Assembly: GCA_963768855.1 (NCBI GenBank)
Contig: CAVYJM010000006.1
Span: forward strand, 576,001-640,000
From: an uncultured Thermoplasmata archaeon
Lineage (GTDB): Archaea > Thermoplasmatota > Thermoplasmata > RBG-16-68-12
DNA: 64,000 nucleotides
Direction of reading: 5' to 3'
The position numbers and the translations under genes were made by a program. This document shows, in pieces, positions 36,476-48,724 of the stretch; the stretch's first letter is position 1, and every line of letters begins with the position of its first letter. The notes below the pieces were generated by a model, which saw nothing but the letters and a program-made list of their open reading frames with translations, made no database searches and was not told the origin of the DNA.

Positions 36476-37450
36476 ATGTCGGAGAACTCACGCGGAATTT
36501 CGGGAAAGGCCGTGGCGCCGGGGATCCTCCTCGTGTTCCTGACGGTCCTTTTCAGCGGCGTCTCGAACTTCGTGAACGCGCAGGCCCTCGGACAGAACCC
36601 CGCCTGGAATTCGGACCTGTTCGTAACCCTGCGGAACGTGACCGTGGCGCTCCTGCTCGTGCCTCTGGTCTTCCTGGCCGGCCGGACCGCCCATGCTCGG
36701 CTCAGCCGGGTCGACTGGCTCAAGCTCGGGACGATCGGCCTCGTCGGCGGGGCGATCCCCTTTGTGCTGTTCTTCCGCGGACTCCAGATGGCCGGATCCA
36801 GCGGCGCGGCAACCGCCACGTTCGGGTACCGCGCCCTGTTCCTCGTCGCGGCGGTCCTCGGCGTCGTCTTCCTGAAGGAGCGTGTCTCCCCGCGCCTCGC
36901 GCTGACGGCAGTCCTCCTCCTGGCGGGGAACGCCCTTCTCCTCTCCCTGACCGCGCCGATCTGGACGGACGGGACGGCCTACGTCCTCCTGGCCACGGTC
37001 CTCTGGGCGGGCGAGTACACCCTCTCAAAGCACACCCTCCGGAACGTGTCGTCCGGGACGGTGGCCCTGGGCCGGATGGGCTTCGGCGGGGCCTTCCTCC
37101 TGGTCTACGTCGCACTCACGGGCCAGCTCTCCGGATTCGCCGCGATCAGCGGGCCGCAGTGGGGGTGGATCGCCCTCAGCGTGATCCTGCTCCTCGGGTT
37201 CGTGACGACCTGGTACGCAGGACTCAAGACGGTCGACGTGAGCCTGGCGACCGCCATGCTCGTCCTCGCCTTCCCGATCACCTGGGCCCTGGGATTCCTC
37301 GCGTCGAAGAGCACGTTCGGGCTGCCCCAGCTCGCGGGCGTCGTGGCGATTACGATCGGCGTCGCACTGGCCGTCGGCCTGGCCTCCCTCCGGGAGACCT
37401 GGAAGGCGGTCCTCGCATGGATCCGGACGAGGGCGCTCCGCGCGGAGTGA
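36476..37450 (+). CDS. DMT/EamA family transporter
   Basis: Two EamA repeats, ~10 TM ('GAIPFVLFFRGL', 'VVFLKER', 'TWYAGLK'). Confidence 0.88.
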   Translation: MSENSRGISGKAVAPGILLVFLTVLFSGVSNFVNAQALGQNPAWNSDLFVTLRNVTVALLLVPLVFLAGRTAHARLSRVDWLKLGTIGLVGGAIPFVLFFRGLQMAGSSGAATATFGYRALFLVAAVLGVVFLKERVSPRLALTAVLLLAGNALLLSLTAPIWTDGTAYVLLATVLWAGEYTLSKHTLRNVSSGTVALGRMGFGGAFLLVYVALTGQLSGFAAISGPQWGWIALSVILLLGFVTTWYAGLKTVDVSLATAMLVLAFPITWALGFLASKSTFGLPQLAGVVAITIGVALAVGLASLRETWKAVLAWIRTRALRAE

Positions 37451-37453
37451 TCG

Positions 37454-38188
37454 ATGCAGGGCGTCCAACTGGCGGCGCGGTTCAGCATCGCGACGAACCG
37501 CCTGAAGTACTGCGGGCCCGCGGACGCGGAGCCCGCCCTCTTCCGGACGATCGTGGAAGGCAAGGACCTCGCCGCCTCGAGGAACGCCCTCCTGCACTTC
37601 GAGGCCCTCGAGCCCTACCTCACGGCCATCGCGGCGAAGCACGGCCTGGACCCGCTCGATCACGACGTCGTCGAGGCGTACTGGATCGGCAACAAGCTCC
37701 TCGACGACTTCACCCGGGACGACTTCCGGGGCGTCCTGGACACCCTCACCCGGCGCGGCCTGCCGCGGACCATGGCGGATGCTTTCGCCGCGCACTTGCC
37801 CGAGCGTCCCCTGCCCCACCACGTCTTCCACGTGAGCTACGTCGGCGTCGGGAACGTCACGGGCCACGTCAAGACGACCCTGCCGAACATGGAGGCGTGC
37901 CGACCCGCTTGGGCCCGCGTCCTCCGGATTTCGAAGGTCGGACTTGAGGTCGAGAAGCCCCCGCTCGAGTACGTCCGGGGCCGGCTGCGGCTCGGGGCTC
38001 CCGTCCGGGAGACGGTCGCGTACGATCCGAAGGTGCTCCGCGGGATTGCCGCGGGGGACCATGTGGCCCTCCATTGGAACTGGCCCGCGGTCATCCTGAC
38101 GGACGGCCAGCTCACGAACCTCAAGGAATACACGGAACGCTCCCTCTCCGCCGCGAGCGACGCCCTCGCCGACCTGCGCGCCCCGTGA
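37454..38188 (+). CDS. DUF6390-like protein with C-terminal HypC-like segment
   Basis: 'N.L.YCGP', '[11 protein letters not shown]', 'PHHVFHV', 'GDHVALHW'; DUF name is from recall and needs an HMM check. Confidence 0.75.
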
Positions 38189-38194
38189 CCGCGT

Positions 38195-38842
38195 TCAGCC
38201 CTCGACGACCGTGATCGTCCCACGCATGTATCCCGGCGTCTCCATCGAGGACGCGTCGCAGGGGGCCAGGCAGTGCCACGTGAACGAACCCGTGACGTTG
38301 AAGTAGGCCCGGAAAGTGACGATCATGGGGTCCGCCAGGCTGTTCGCGCGGGGGACCGGCACGTTCAGGGCATAGCCGCCCTGGTCCAGCGTGAAGGTGT
38401 GCGACACCTGGTCCGCGGGCACCGCGGCCATGTCCATCCCCTGGGCCTCGGAGGCCGCCCGCATCGTCTCCATGCCGCCGAGGGTCCCCACGACCCGCGC
38501 CGACTCGCTGGCCACGGGGTTCGAGACGTTGTCGTAGTTCGTGATCGTGACGAGGACGAGCGTGTGCGCGGGCACCGTGAAGTTCGCGGGCAGGTAGCGG
38601 TCGAGCCCCGTCGCGAAGTCGAACCCGATCGTCAGGAAAAGGTAGCCGGTCCCGGGCCCCGACGGTCCGGGACCCGGGCCCCCGGGTCAGGTAGCCGACG
38701 AGCCCGCCGCCGATGAGGCCGAGGACGAGCGACGACGACCGACGGCCAGGACTATCGTGCCTCGCGTCGGCGGCCGGGTCCCCCGCATCGTCCCGGGATG
38801 TGCGTTGCCGTCGATGCGGTCCTCGTACCCGTGGTTGGACAT
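38195..38842 (-). pseudogene. membrane-anchored cupredoxin-like protein, frameshifted
   Basis: ATG 38842 after GGAGG-like SD; TM helix; 'PANFTVPAHTLV.VTITNYD', 'HTFT', 'WHCLAPC....M....M.G.ITV'; at least 2 frame changes in 38640-38760. Confidence 0.7.
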
Positions 38843-38999
38843 GCCGCTCCTTCCTCCCTACCGACGGGGAGGCGTGGGACACTGTATCTTGCCCTTGCGC
38901 AAGTACTGTACTTGGCGGGCGGTGTCGGGCGCACCGCGGCGACGCGAATCGCCCGACCCTGGTTGCGATTCGCCGGTCCAGGCCGCCGCGGTCCCCGCC

Positions 39000-40105
39000 T
39001 CACTTCGTCTTCCACGACAGGGCGCGCGCGGGGATCACGAAGAAGATGACCGCGATGACCGCGGTCACCGCTAGGTCGACGAGTGCTGCCCCATCGTTGC
39101 CCAGGACCATCGTGGACCGCAGGCCTTCGTTGAGGTAGGTCAGCGGCAGGAAGTTCGCGACGGTCTTCAGGTACGAGGGGAACAGGTCGATCGGGAAGAA
39201 GGAGCCGGAGAGGAACATCATCGGGAAGCCGATCGCGTTCGCGATCGCCGCCGAGGTCTCCTGGTCCCGGATGAAGATCCCGAGGAGCATGCCGAGCGAG
39301 GTGAACTCGACGGTCCCCGCGACGATCAGGAGGACCGCCACGGGCGTGATCGTGCCGTCCATGTGGAAGACGAAGACGCCCGCGACCAGGATGAGGACCA
39401 CGGAGACGAACATGAGCAGGGTGTAGAACAGGATCTTGGCCGCGAGCCATTCCGCCTTCGAGAGCTTCGTGGTCGCGAGGAATTTGAAGTACTTCCGGGT
39501 CCGGTACTCCGCGCAGATGCCCGTCATCCCGAACAGCGGTGTGGTGAGGACGGTGAAACCGATGATCCCCGGCAGGAAGAGGTCGATGTACTTCTCGCCT
39601 CGTTCGGAGACGGTGCCCGTCGTCAGATGGACGACGGGCTGGGTCGTTCGTCACGGCAAAGTTGAACCCGGTGATGGCTCCCGCCGACGGCGGACGCGGC
39701 GATGCCGAACGGGGACTGCGTCGGGTCGCCGTACAGGGTGACCGTTACCGTCGCGTTCGGGTCCCCGGCCTGGGCCCGGGAGACGTTGTCCCCGAACCCC
39801 TCCGGAATCAGGAGAGCAGTGTTGATCGAGTTCTCACGGATGTAGGTCGTGATGTTCACGTTACTCGGGATCGGGTTGTAGATGAGGATTGTCGTGTTGT
39901 TGAGGGCTTGGACGAACTGCCAGCTCGCCGTGGTTCCGTCCAGGTTCTGCACGTAGATCGGCAGGGTGGAGGTTCCACTGCCGCTGAAGATGGCGCCGAA
40001 GAGCAGGATGATGATGACCGGGAATGCCAGGGCAAAGAACGTCCCCGTGCGAGACCGCAGGTACTGCATGCCGAAGGCCTTCGCGTCGGCCAGGATACGG
40101 CTCAT
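39000..40105 (-). pseudogene. ABC-2 type transporter permease, two +1 frameshifts
   Basis: Removing one base at ~39681 and one at ~39643 joins the two ORFs through 'GAITGFNFAVT...GEKYIDLFLPGIIGF'. Confidence 0.8.
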
Positions 40106-41037
40106 TAGGCGAGCTCACCTTCCTTCATACGTGCGCCGATGAGCCTCAGGAACACATCCTCGAGGGTGGGCCTTCGGGTGTAGATTTCCTTCAAGGGCAT
40201 TTCGATTGACGCGACCTTGGCGAGCGTCCACCGCACGAGGGACGGGTCGTCCACGTGGACCAGGACGTTCCCGTTCTCCTGCTGCGCAACGATGCCGCGC
40301 GCCCGTAGCGCCTCGTAGCCCGCTTGGCCTGCGCCCGCTAGGACGATCGTGGTCCCGTGGCCGTAGCGGGTGATCAGCTCCTCGGGCGAACCGCGCGCGA
40401 CGATCCGGCCCTTGTTCATGATCGCGACGTCGTCGGCCAGCTGCTCGGCCTCGTCGAGGTAGTGCGTCGTCAGGAGGACCGTCTTCCCGGCCGATTGGAG
40501 GGAACGGATGAGCCCCCAGAGTTCTCGCCGGGCGCCGGGATCGAGCCCGGTCGTCGGCTCATCGAGGAAAACGAGGTCCGGGTTCCCGACGAGGGCCATC
40601 GCGATCCCGAGGCGTCGCTTCTCCCCGCCGGAAAGGTTGATTCCTTGGGTGTCCGCCCGGGAGGTGAGCCCGACGGTCTCGATGATCTTCGCAATCTCCT
40701 CCTCGCCCATCTTCTGATCGAAGAGGGAGGACCAGTACTCGACGGCCTCGGTGGGCTTGAGGCGGTCGAACGGCTCGAAATCCTGGGGGAGGACGCCGAC
40801 GCGCTCGCGGATGCGCCGGTATTCCCTCGTCACGTCGACGCCGAACACCTTGGCGGATCCCGCGGTGGGATCCCGGAGTCCCTCCAGAATCTCGACGGTC
40901 GTCGTCTTCCCGGCGCCGTTCGGACCCAGGAGGGAGAAGATCTGCCCGGGCCGGACCTCGAAGTCGATGCCGTCCACGGCCTTGATGTCCGGGTACTCCT
41001 TGCGGAGCCCCCGCACCTCGATGGCGAGATCCACCAT
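40105..41037 (-). CDS. ABC-2 type transporter ATP-binding protein
   Basis: GPNGAGKTT, LSGGEKRR, LDEPTTGLDP, TTHY. Confidence 0.95.
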   Translation of the reverse strand: MVDLAIEVRGLRKEYPDIKAVDGIDFEVRPGQIFSLLGPNGAGKTTTVEILEGLRDPTAGSAKVFGVDVTREYRRIRERVGVLPQDFEPFDRLKPTEAVEYWSSLFDQKMGEEEIAKIIETVGLTSRADTQGINLSGGEKRRLGIAMALVGNPDLVFLDEPTTGLDPGARRELWGLIRSLQSAGKTVLLTTHYLDEAEQLADDVAIMNKGRIVARGSPEELITRYGHGTTIVLAGAGQAGYEALRARGIVAQQENGNVLVHVDDPSLVRWTLAKVASIEMPLKEIYTRRPTLEDVFLRLIGARMKEGELA

Positions 41038-41100
41038 TCCTCGGCCCCCGGCGAGGAACGGGGACTGGCCTTATGGAGTTTGTCGCGCACGGGTGCCCGC

Positions 41101-41475
41101 CTACGGATCCTCGAGGACCAGGGTGGCCCGCCGGACGACGAACCCCCGTCCGCCTCGGAGCTCCAGGGCGGCCCCGCAATCCGGGCAGAGAGCGCGGGGC
41201 AGCTCGTGGCCGTGGCCCGTGGGGAGCTCGAAGGGTTTCGCGGCCTTGCAGGACGGGCACACGGCCGTGGCGGGTACCAGGGAGACCCGGAGGACCGCGC
41301 CGTCGAGGAGGGTGTTCGCCGCCTCCAGATCGAAGGCGGCCTGCAGCTCCTGCGGGTTCAGGCCCTCCAGCTGGCCGAGATCGATGTCGATCGCCTTGCA
41401 GCCGCTCGCGCCCCGCTGGTCCATCTCCGCCAGGACCACGCGGACGACCTGCTGGGCGATGACGGTTTCATGCAT
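41101..41475 (-). CDS. hypA: hydrogenase nickel-insertion protein HypA
   Basis: N-terminal MHE, CPSC and CPDC zinc pairs, 'GRG' tail. Confidence 0.92.
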   Translation of the reverse strand: MHETVIAQQVVRVVLAEMDQRGASGCKAIDIDLGQLEGLNPQELQAAFDLEAANTLLDGAVLRVSLVPATAVCPSCKAAKPFELPTGHGHELPRALCPDCGAALELRGGRGFVVRRATLVLEDP

Positions 41476-41689
41476 CGCCGGCGGCCTCGACCTCGTCCCA
41501 CGCCTCGAGGATCTCCTCCGCCTCCTTGCGCTCGACGGTCATCATCGCGACGCCGCCTTGCACGAGGAGATACTCGCCGACGCGCGTCTTCACGTGGCTC
41601 GCGTCGACCTCGCGCGTCCAGCCGCGGGAGGTGACGACGGCCTTCTTGCCGCGCATCTCGAGGACCTTGGCCGGAACGGTGAGACACAT
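41468..41689 (-). CDS. hypC: HypC/HybG/HupF family protein, conserved His replaced by Gln
   Basis: MCLTVPAKV N-terminus; 'VGEYLLVQGG' where HypC normally has 'VG..VLVHVG'. Confidence 0.88.
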   Translation of the reverse strand: MCLTVPAKVLEMRGKKAVVTSRGWTREVDASHVKTRVGEYLLVQGGVAMMTVERKEAEEILEAWDEVEAAGDA

Positions 41690-45655: not shown

Positions 45656-46210
45656 TCACAGGGCGTGGGATTCGCGGTCCGCCTTCTTCGCGGGCTTCCG
45701 GGCCCTCGTCCGAGGCTCGCCCAGGACGTGGAAGACGCTCACGAGGAGGTGGGCCAATCCGGCCTGCTCCGGTCCCGCGGGGGTGAAGCCCTGCGCATCG
45801 AGGTCCGGTTGGATCCCCACGAGGCTCACCCGGGCTCCCGTGTCCTTCTCGAGGAACTCCATGACCACAGAGAGCGGGAGGGCGTGCGTCGAGAGGAGGG
45901 TCGCCCGGATCTCGTTCGGCTCGACGAGGGCCACGGCCCCCGGCCGGGCGCCCATGTCGGCGGCGTCCAGCAAGAGGACCGCGTCGGGCTTGAACCGCCG
46001 GATTGGGCCCGTCACGCTCTCCGGGACGGTCCCGGCGAGGAACACGCGGACGTTCGGCAGGTGGAGCCCCTCGACCTCCTTCGCGGCGAGCATGCCGAGG
46101 CGGTCGTGGACGTTCAGCTCATCCCCGACGCCGACGACCGCGATGCGCTTCGCTTCCCCCAACCGCCGGCGGAGCCGCAATTCGAAGTCGTGCTGGGCGA
46201 TGTACGTCAC
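45656..46210 (-). CDS. hycI: hydrogenase maturation endopeptidase, HycI type
   Basis: 'VVGVGDEL..HDRLG', 'GTVPES', 'LDAADMG', 'STHALPL', 'GIQP'; GTGA overlap with the upstream gene. Confidence 0.9.
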   Translation of the reverse strand: MTYIAQHDFELRLRRRLGEAKRIAVVGVGDELNVHDRLGMLAAKEVEGLHLPNVRVFLAGTVPESVTGPIRRFKPDAVLLLDAADMGARPGAVALVEPNEIRATLLSTHALPLSVVMEFLEKDTGARVSLVGIQPDLDAQGFTPAGPEQAGLAHLLVSVFHVLGEPRTRARKPAKKADRESHAL

Positions 46211-46572: not shown

Positions 46573-47543
46573 CCGCTCACCCACCAGTAGTAGTTCATGA
46601 CCAGGACGAGCGCGACCTGGATGATCGCGGCGCTCGCGAGGTACTTCCACCCGATGTCGTTGAGCTGGTCGATCCGGATGCGCCCGGTCGCGACCTTGAT
46701 CGAGGACAGGACGAGGAGGATGGCCAGAGTCTTCGCGAAGAACACGAGGAACCCGACGATCCATCCGAACCAGTTCGGGGTGATCGCCCACGGGATCAGG
46801 GGGCCGCCCAGGAAGAGGGCCGCCACGAGGGCGCTGCCCACGACCAGGCTCACGTCCATCGTGAGCTTCATCAGGGCGAGGCGCCGGCCCGTGAGCTCCG
46901 TCGTCGGGCCTGCCACGATCTCCGTCTCCGCCTCGGGGATGTCGAAGGGGGTGCGCTCGAGCTTGGCCTGGAGGCCAATCAGCGCGACGATGAACCCGAT
47001 CGGCTGGAGGATCGCGAACCAGTAGTGCCCCTGCTCCCAGGTGACGATATCCGAGATGGACCAGCTACCCGCCATGAGCGCGGGGGCGAGGAGCGCGAGG
47101 AAGAACGGCACCTCGTAGATGAACATCTGCGTCACGGCGCGGACGCCGCCGATCGTCGAGTAGACGTTCCGGCTGAGCCAGCCCAGGAGGAACAGGACGA
47201 TTGTCGGGAGGGTCAGGAGGTACAGCACGAGGACCAGGTCGCCCTGGAACGCGAGGGGGCTGTTCCCTACGATGGGCACGTACAGGAACGCGGTCATCAC
47301 GGCCGCCAGGGCGAGGATCGGGGCGAAGTCGAAGGCCTTGCGGTCGACGCCATCCGGGTCGATGACCTCCTTCCCGAGCATCTTGATGAAGTCCGCGAAG
47401 GGCTGCAGGAGGGGCGGGCCGACTCGGTTCTGCATCCTCGCGGCGATCTTCCGGTCGAGGAACTGGAAGAAGAACGCGTATGTCAGGAGGAACAGGAACC
47501 CGGGGAACACGAGGAGGTAGACGACCTCGAGGATCGGGTCCAT
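46569..47543 (-). CDS. group 4 hydrogenase membrane subunit (NuoH/MbhM-like)
   Basis: 'RKIAARMQNRVGPP.LQPFAD..K', 'RTPFDIPEAETEIVAG', 'RIRIDQ'. Confidence 0.93.
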   Translation of the reverse strand: MDPILEVVYLLVFPGFLFLLTYAFFFQFLDRKIAARMQNRVGPPLLQPFADFIKMLGKEVIDPDGVDRKAFDFAPILALAAVMTAFLYVPIVGNSPLAFQGDLVLVLYLLTLPTIVLFLLGWLSRNVYSTIGGVRAVTQMFIYEVPFFLALLAPALMAGSWSISDIVTWEQGHYWFAILQPIGFIVALIGLQAKLERTPFDIPEAETEIVAGPTTELTGRRLALMKLTMDVSLVVGSALVAALFLGGPLIPWAITPNWFGWIVGFLVFFAKTLAILLVLSSIKVATGRIRIDQLNDIGWKYLASAAIIQVALVLVMNYYWWVSG

Positions 47544-48724
47544 CAGCGTCGCCCCCGTGCGCGGTAGAAGGCGCGTCCGTGCTCGCTCAGCTCATCCCAG
47601 GTCATCTCGCCCACCTTCCGCCCGCGCTCGTTGACCACCGTGATCCGGGAGGTGCACGAGAGGCAGGGGTCGATCGCCGCGACGACCACGGGGATGTCCG
47701 CGAGGTTCTGGTTCACCAGGCTCACCGCCACGGAGGTCCAGTTCGCCAGGCTCGGGGTACGGATGTCGAGGCGCTCGACCTTGTCCGTGTTGTTCGTGCG
47801 GATGAAGTGGACGAGCTCACCGCGGGGCGCCTCATAGCGCGAAAGGATCTCCGCCTTCGGCGCGGCCCGGGGCGGGGGCGTCCGGATGGGTCCCGCCGGG
47901 AGGTTCTCGAGGCAGTACCGCACGATCTGGAGGCTCTGCTGGAGCTCGCCGATCCGGACCAGCGTCCGGCCGTAGACGTCTCCGTGGGTGTCCGAGACGA
48001 CCTTCCACGGCACCTCCGCGTAGGCGATGTACGGGTCGTCGTGGCGGACGTCGAACTGGATGTCGCTCGCCCTCGCCGTCGGCCCGACCGTCCCGAACTT
48101 CAGGGCCTGCTCCTTCGTGAGCTTGCCGACGCCCTTGAACCGCATGAGGACGGTCTGCTCGTTGTTCACCATCTGGCCGTAGCCGGTGATGCGCCGCTCC
48201 AGCTTGGGCAGGCGATCGAGCGCCGCCTTAATCTGGTCCGGGGTGACGTCCCGGCGGACGCCGCCGACCTCGTTGATCCCGTGGTTCACCCGGTTCCCAG
48301 TCAGCTCTTCGAGCATGTCCAGGACGGACTCGCGGTCCCGCCAGCTCCACATGAAGAGGGTGTTGAACCCGACCTCGTGGCCCGCGACGCCGAGCCAGAG
48401 CAGGTGGGAGTGCATCCGCTCGAGCTCCGCGACGATTGTGCGGATGTACTGCGCCCGCGGCGGGATCTGGAGCTTCATCGCTTCCTCGATCCCCTTCACG
48501 AAGACCGTGGCGTGGGAGTGAGAGCAGATCCCGCAGACGCGTTCCAGGAGGGGCACGACGCGGACGAAGTCCCGCGCCTCGGCGGCCTTCTCGATGCCGC
48601 GGTGGTTGTAGGAGATGTCCAGCTCGAGGCGGACGATCTTCTCGCCGTCCGCGACGACCTTGAAGTTCACGGGCTCCTTGAGGGCCGGGTGCTGCGGCCC
48701 GACGGGCACGATGACCTCGGCCAT
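47543..48724 (-). CDS. group 4 [NiFe]-hydrogenase large subunit
   Basis: L1 'ERVCGICSHSH' and L2 'DPCLSCTSR' both intact, followed by a ~33-aa extension; 'EAPRGE'. Confidence 0.93.
   Translation of the reverse strand: MAEVIVPVGPQHPALKEPVNFKVVADGEKIVRLELDISYNHRGIEKAAEARDFVRVVPLLERVCGICSHSHATVFVKGIEEAMKLQIPPRAQYIRTIVAELERMHSHLLWLGVAGHEVGFNTLFMWSWRDRESVLDMLEELTGNRVNHGINEVGGVRRDVTPDQIKAALDRLPKLERRITGYGQMVNNEQTVLMRFKGVGKLTKEQALKFGTVGPTARASDIQFDVRHDDPYIAYAEVPWKVVSDTHGDVYGRTLVRIGELQQSLQIVRYCLENLPAGPIRTPPPRAAPKAEILSRYEAPRGELVHFIRTNNTDKVERLDIRTPSLANWTSVAVSLVNQNLADIPVVVAAIDPCLSCTSRITVVNERGRKVGEMTWDELSEHGRAFYRARGRR

Follow-up and report, generated by a model that had tools for sequence, protein, structure and literature searches.

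The canonical maturation system of [NiFe]-hydrogenases is HypABCDEF, in which a Cys and a His residue of HypC hold the Fe(CN)2CO unit and HypD is the obligate partner of HypC; in the HypC-HypD complex (3vyr-3vyu), Cys2 of HypC meets a conserved Cys/His motif of the larger partner. One recent account (PMC12130793) ascribes the NiFe(CN)2CO cofactor of all [NiFe]-hydrogenases to six Hyp proteins. Investigating a 64,000-nucleotide stretch of DNA (the window; C6:576001-640000 of genome G000) from a high-GC (67%) Thermoplasmata metagenome-assembled genome (MAG) of 2.87 Mb (completeness 93.6%, contamination 7.7%), we observed a gene pair, eamA-duf6390, which encodes an EamA permease and a protein of the Pfam family DUF6390 and which stands near hypC, hypA and a [NiFe]-hydrogenase operon. 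The C-terminal half of DUF6390 is related to HypC, and the family occurs almost only in genomes lacking HypD, HypE and HypF. The source genome has HypA, HypC and the specific endopeptidase in common with the canonical system, but none of HypD, HypE and HypF above cut-offs.

Like the members of the HypC/HybG/HupF family (PF01455; 2z1c, 3vyr, 2ot2), DUF6390 combines an OB (oligonucleotide/oligosaccharide-binding) fold and a following C-terminal helix with an equivalent pair of Cys and His residues and a location in hyp or hydrogenase clusters. Unlike them, it has an internal Cys (residue 149) instead of the free N-terminal Cys2, carries a helical domain of 145 residues in front, lies outside the reach of the Pfam HypC model and is found where HypD is missing. 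Compared with HypD, it has the motifs YCGP and PHHxFH in place of CGxHxH, but no likeness in sequence or fold and no [4Fe-4S] motif, and there is no HypE or HypF to deliver cyanide. The permease has the ten-helix, two-repeat architecture of EamA/DMT (drug/metabolite transporter) proteins (PF00892, for example YddG), to which the metallophore exporter CntI also belongs; its subfamily differs from other DMT permeases in being tied to DUF6390 and hydrogenase maturation genes, and we know of no DMT protein acting in hydrogenase maturation. One-component regulators, in which a ligand-sensing domain is joined to a DNA-binding domain, resemble a minority of DUF6390 proteins (PadR, GntR, XRE and ArsR fusions), whereas the protein of the window lacks such a DNA-binding part and has a permease as its partner. 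Searching the literature on hydrogenase maturation in DPANN archaea and the candidate phyla radiation (CPR) and on the absence of hypDEF, we found no description of a [NiFe] maturation set lacking HypDEF, and a Cell 2024 paper on archaeal hydrogenases covers [FeFe] maturases only.

DUF6390 and its relation to HypC

The 244-aa protein of the window matches PF19927 over profile positions 4-241 of 244 (E 9e-41, 140 bits, gathering cut-off 25). An initial annotation of the window, made from the sequence alone, had described a DUF6390-like protein with an internal HypC domain; the HypC domain stands, but the end-to-end match makes the protein an ordinary full-length DUF6390 and no special fusion, the HypC-like part being the C-terminal half of the whole family. 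This family comprises 794 clusters at 50% identity, nearly all of about 240 aa.

Three lines of comparison agree on the resemblance of the C-terminal 95 or so residues to HypC. A profile built from 94 diverse family members, compared with the sequences of the PDB, gave the HypC of T. kodakarensis as its top two matches (2z1c and 3vyr, E 0.004-0.005), with His207 of DUF6390 on the HypC His. Aligned by hhalign with the HypC proteins of the source lineage, the family reached a probability of 91.9 (E 7e-7), with Cys149 on Cys2 and His207 on the His column, so that the retention of both HypC residues proposed in the initial annotation is upheld. In an exhaustive structural comparison of the full-length AlphaFold model (predicted local distance difference test, pLDDT, 97.4; predicted template modelling score 0.94), 2z1c_A ranked first of 48,161 chains (Z 7.8, root-mean-square deviation 2.1 A, 71 of 71 residues, model residues 147-234), with Z 6.2 for E. 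coli HypC and about 7 for generic OB folds. A Z of 7.8 is middling on its own; it counts because the chain is matched in full, the helix included, and because two independent sequence-profile results point the same way. No similarity was obtained in a pairwise BLASTP of residues 140-244 against the HypC of the window (E 32), the same residues scanned alone at E up to 10 matched only DUF6390 and neither PF01455 nor TIGR00074, and Foldseek with the full model returned nothing from the PDB at E <= 0.001 (uS17 OB folds and 2z1c at E 0.04-0.3). The likeness is real and beyond chance and, since pairwise BLASTP and the Pfam HypC model are blind to it, remote. As to the individual traits of HypC, the OB fold with its C-terminal helix is present and the equivalent of E. 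coli His51 is found in 94 of 94 members (His207), whereas a Cys directly after the initiator Met is not.

Within the alignment of the 94 members, His123 and His207 are invariant and Cys20, Cys149, Tyr55, Glu74, Trp77, Asn80 and Trp208 are conserved in at least 90%; Cys20, His123, Cys149 and His207 are kept in 92-94 of them and in every EamA or helix-turn-helix fusion checked. The YCGP and PHHxFH motifs, already pointed out in the initial annotation, thus are features of the family. Up to residue 130 the model shows eight helices; a short one at 143-149 comes next, then seven strands (152-215) and, at the C-terminus, a long helix. The models indicate a two-domain protein, in which a novel helical domain precedes an OB fold of the HypC type. 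The N-terminal domain is all-helical with one conserved Cys and, modelled alone, found no solved match (best VIA Z 4.6, best Foldseek E 2.8), the VIA rows being weak and of an acyl-carrier-like four-helix kind. A search of the ESM Atlas with this domain yielded only DUF6390 itself and a 159-aa cluster from Nanobdellota at TM 0.49. This cluster, which matches the N-terminal domain in part and of which one third of the members bear a HypC Pfam domain, may be a shortened form of DUF6390.

The stand-alone HypC of the window keeps Cys2, while Gln44 stands at the position of the His, as had been noted from the alignment; the second HypC of the genome has Asn there. Gln is the residue in about 44 of 62 HypC proteins linked to DUF6390 and His in about 12, whereas His is found in 5 of 5 HypCs taken from genomes of the same class that have HypD, and DUF6390 itself never lacks the His at this position. 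In these alignments, His-less HypC tracks DUF6390. Complex prediction for DUF6390 with the HypC of the window gave a score of 0.65, the best of three controls 0.00; of 80 solved complexes 58 attain this mark, and of 110 mismatched pairs 2. Three runs share at least 90% of the contacts and the partner pLDDT is at least 83, so that the prediction supports binding of the two proteins. In the predicted interface, residues 1-6 (with Cys2) and 42-47 (with Gln44) of HypC face residues 17-23 (with Cys20), 126-127, 145-146 and 149 of DUF6390, which would place Cys20, the PHHxFH helix and Cys149 on one patch. No solved complex resembles the pair, because the contacted domain has no known fold. The suggestion that DUF6390 complements a degenerate HypC gains support from the frequency of Gln, from the His of the HypD-positive genomes and from the predicted complex.

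Distribution and gene neighbourhood

HypD, HypE and HypF are all missing in 52 of the 54 genomes with DUF6390, namely in the source genome and in 51 of 53 others. One carrier (G247) has an intact hypDEF set. The other (G210, the genome of locus L024) contains, at G210:C1:338882-343129, an intact hypF, a partial hypE and a hypD that is broken up by three TGA codons and by split frames. Either the canonical set has decayed here or the sequence contains errors, the latter being possible as this may be a long-read assembly.

Among 201 genomes of the archaeal class of the source, HypD is found in 129 (HypD-positive genomes scoring E < 1e-90) and DUF6390 in 14, with no overlap. DUF6390 is confined there to two families, with HypD found in none of the 7 genomes of one and none of the 23 of the other; for many of these genomes completeness is 93-100%. 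Within these two families, all 13 genomes with a HycI protease have DUF6390, and of the 17 without the protease 16 have none and one (G131) has a partial copy. The exclusion recurs in a CPR bacterial phylum, of which 151 genomes were sampled: out of 34 with a match to the large subunit, 13 have DUF6390, 11 have HypD, ten have neither and none has both. The hypergeometric chance of this zero overlap is about 0.001 when relatedness is ignored; since kin are not independent, the recurrence of the exclusion in both archaea and bacteria should be given more weight than this number. The ten genomes with neither gene may be incomplete, contain NuoD-like false matches or use another arrangement.

The surroundings of DUF6390 were surveyed in 80 loci of relatives, 78 of which, drawn from Thermoplasmata, DPANN, CPR, Chloroflexota and Thermoproteota, were used for counts within 7 kb with Pfam checks of the neighbours. 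Genes of the HypC family are found at distances of up to about 1 kb in 55 of the 80 loci and within 7 kb in 62 of the 78, the large subunit of a [NiFe]-hydrogenase within 7 kb in 52 of the 78, EamA in 68, HypA in about 50 and a maturation protease in 27; beta/gamma subunits of the group 3b type occur in 36-46 of the surveyed loci. The association of the family with hyp and [NiFe]-hydrogenase genes is therefore a tight one, in archaea as in bacteria. Neither of the two sequence-based outcomes named in the initial annotation as speaking against it, a C-terminus without the HypC fold and a lack of this association, was observed. Typically, the order in DPANN is small subunit, large subunit, protease, eamA and duf6390, followed by convergent hypC and hypA, and in Thermoplasmata and CPR protease, hypA, hypC, eamA and duf6390. 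The neighbouring large subunits show the canonical motifs RICGxC and DPCxSCxxH and tails of 7-13 aa.

Coupling to EamA, likewise part of the initial annotation, is confirmed by the position of eamA, which in 68 of 80 loci immediately precedes duf6390 on the same strand, by the 3-nt junction between the two genes in the window and by fusions. Four bacterial protein clusters have EamA joined to the N-terminus of DUF6390, one such fusion sits in a CPR hydrogenase cluster, and a search for longer fused forms gave only EamA fusions; an Nramp gene adjoins a fused form. As DUF6390 begins behind the last helix of EamA in these fusions, it should, given the usual DMT topology, be cytoplasmic. The linked EamA subfamily conserves Asn, Glu, Lys, Arg, Trp and Tyr residues, with His, Cys and Met absent from the conserved set, which argues against a bare nickel or iron ion as substrate.

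The window and the hydrogenase genes of the genome

In the window, iorA and iorB are followed by the EamA permease and DUF6390, then on the opposite strand by a cupredoxin-like gene, an ABC-2 transporter, hypA and hypC, and finally by porGDAB (coordinates of the relevant features are given in Table 1). Eight nucleotides separate the stop codon of iorB from the ATG of eamA. The block parting duf6390 from hypA (38195-41037) consists of the cupredoxin-like gene, which has no Pfam match, and an ABC-2 exporter, whose ATPase is encoded at 40105-41037 and whose permease appears as two open reading frames (39623-40105 and 39000-39527), which may be due to a frameshift or a split gene. In the closest relatives (loci L014-L019) this block is missing and hypA comes directly after duf6390, marking the 2.9-kb block as a local insertion; hypA and hypC are 3.3 kb away in the window only through the inserted genes.

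Table 1 Features of the eamA-duf6390 locus and the neighbouring hydrogenase operon (window positions)
Feature	Position	Strand	Basis or remark
EamA/DMT permease, 324 aa	36476-37450	+	Pfam EamA (PF00892), two repeats, E 8e-25
DUF6390 protein, 244 aa	37454-38188	+	PF19927, E 9e-41
DUF6390 N-terminal helical domain (predicted), residues 1-145	37454-37888	+	YCGP, EAYWxGN and PHHxFH motifs; pLDDT 95.3 modelled alone
Codons of C20 and H123 (N-terminal domain)	37511-37513; 37820-37822	+	
DUF6390 C-terminal HypC-type OB fold and helix (predicted), residues 147-240	37892-38173	+	Profile and structure comparison
Codons of C149 and H207 (C-terminal domain)	37898-37900; 38072-38074	+	
HypA nickel metallochaperone, 124 aa	41101-41475	-	PF01155, E 4e-20
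Stand-alone HypC, 73 aa, overlapping hypA	41468-41689	-	PF01455, E 1e-17; TIGR00074 above cut-off
Hydrogenase maturation endopeptidase (HycI family), end of large-subunit operon	45803-46057 (C6:621803-622057)	-	PF01750, E 1.3e-12
[NiFe]-hydrogenase large subunit, 393 aa, candidate client, complex-I-like operon	47543-48724	-	PF00374 and motif scan

The large subunit of the window contains the motifs RVCGIC and DPCLSCTSR and a C-terminal tail of 33 aa. Altogether, the genome encodes two large subunits (the second at C6:300117-301583), both of which have a C-terminal tail and their Cys motifs intact, two HypC, two HypA and two proteases. A third match to PF00374 (C12:67164-67370, in a 364-aa frame) lacks both Cys motifs and is probably a NuoD-like subunit rather than a hydrogenase. 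The second hydrogenase cluster, outside the window (C6:288001-304000 and 301001-309000), comprises hypC2, an mvhD-like gene, the small subunit, a large subunit of 488 aa, hypA2, an EamA paralogue and a protease. This paralogue (323 aa, L104:1610-2581) lies between hypA2 and the protease and has no second DUF6390 beside it, which ties the permease to maturation genes even where DUF6390 is absent. Neither HypD (PF01924) nor, above cut-offs, HypE and HypF were matched in the window or in the genome, and HypB of the GTPase type (TIGR00073) is absent from 51 of the 54 carriers, the source genome among them, the MinD-type HypB that archaea can use not having been searched for. The lack of hypB, hypD, hypE and hypF reported earlier for the window thus extends to the whole genome, for HypB within this limit.

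Proposed function, competing explanations and significance

On balance, we favour the interpretation that eamA-duf6390, together with the nearby hypC and hypA, forms an accessory module for [NiFe]-hydrogenase maturation, in which DUF6390 acts as a HypC-partnered scaffold for a metal or cofactor and stands in for the HypD side of HypCD. Cys20, His123, Cys149 and His207 would make up a site for a metal or cofactor where the two domains meet, onto which the stand-alone and usually His-less HypC would dock its Cys2. DUF6390 and HypC together would then be a functional counterpart of the HypC-HypD scaffold, holding the iron unit in the shared Cys/His site, and HypC would pass this unit to the large subunit, after which HypA would insert nickel and the protease trim the tail. 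EamA, which would sit in the membrane beside DUF6390, may supply or remove a small molecule for one of the maturation steps. Going further, one could tentatively envisage that the [NiFe]-hydrogenases of organisms carrying hypC-eamA-duf6390 mature without HypD, HypE and HypF altogether, through a new Fe(CN)2CO chemistry on the DUF6390-HypC scaffold, a precursor imported by EamA or a different set of iron ligands; this seems to us possible rather than probable.

Several points weigh against the scaffold interpretation. A literature search returned no paper mentioning DUF6390. The family lacks both a [4Fe-4S] and a nucleotide-binding motif, does not resemble HypD and conserves two Cys only, and therefore cannot copy the redox or ATPase chemistry of HypD. 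The chemistry is the weak point, as the content of the module leaves the synthesis of cyanide and CO without HypE and HypF unexplained; a HydG-like enzyme is present in only 1 of 54 carriers, and the radical-SAM route of the HydG type was consequently rejected as a general source of these ligands. The closeness of Cys20, His123, Cys149 and His207 to one another is inferred from a predicted interface. The hypDEF genes of G247 and G210 show that DUF6390 and canonical systems can coexist, and it should also be noted that most of the genomes are MAGs and that related genomes are non-independent samples. Finally, in a minority of cases DUF6390 is fused, with its Cys/His site intact, to DNA-binding domains of the PadR, XRE, GntR or ArsR type. 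Among the loci concerned (L094-L096 and further contigs), a PadR fusion precedes a gene for an unknown 394-aa protein and an ABC importer of the Nik/Opp type (SBP_bac_5), and a GntR fusion, about 8 kb from a group-1 small subunit, precedes an importer of the Fbp/Thi type (SBP_bac_1/11, fused permease, TOBE ATPase). Such fusions beside ABC importers imply that the domain can sense some metal or ligand, which fits a sensor better than a scaffold.

These fusions, of four kinds and with the site residues kept, likewise speak for a role in metal supply or sensing, the main rival explanation, which we regard as rather unlikely. EamA would in that case move nickel or iron, probably as a chelate, and DUF6390 would be a cytoplasmic sensor or metallochaperone gating the permease or feeding HypA and HypC, with no part in making Fe(CN)2CO; the second EamA of the genome, between hypA2 and the protease with no DUF6390 beside it, and the Nramp gene next to a fused EamA-DUF6390 agree with this. 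However, the permease has none of the conserved His, Cys or Met expected for nickel or iron sites, the exclusion with HypD, HypE and HypF is left unexplained, and no account is given of why the retained residues are exactly the HypC ligands of the iron unit.

DUF6390 could also be an additional, lineage-specific HypC paralogue serving as a chaperone of the large subunit in the manner of HupF or HoxL, the lack of HypD, HypE and HypF being an artefact of incomplete MAGs or very divergent genes. HypC paralogues with extra domains are known, most of the genomes indeed are MAGs and two carriers do have hypDEF. Yet the model that detects HypD in 129 of 201 class members finds it in none of the 7 and 23 genomes of the two families, many nearly or fully complete, the same split is seen in CPR bacteria, and all three genes are gone together in 52 of 54 carriers, so that we consider this explanation very improbable. 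That DUF6390 is an unrelated neighbour regulating an EamA metabolite exporter, its closeness to hyp genes being due to chance, might be suggested by the window, where the pair follows iorAB and hypA-hypC lies at a distance on the other strand, but this is already contradicted by the context survey, with HypC and the large subunit close by in most loci of several phyla and DUF6390 tracking the hydrogenase protease in the HypD-less families, and can hardly be true.

The scaffold interpretation bears on soil and wetland Thermoplasmata, DPANN, CPR and Chloroflexota, that is, on lineages in which large subunits of the canonical type, HypA, HypC and the protease are accompanied by eamA-duf6390 in place of HypD, HypE and HypF. 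If the module indeed replaces the HypCDEF core, it would open a new way of making an organometallic cofactor that is unique in biology, offer a much smaller gene set for the heterologous production of hydrogenases and correct the metabolic predictions for many uncultured groups. DUF6390, a Pfam family of unknown function with about 800 sequence clusters, is moreover given a function that can be tested.

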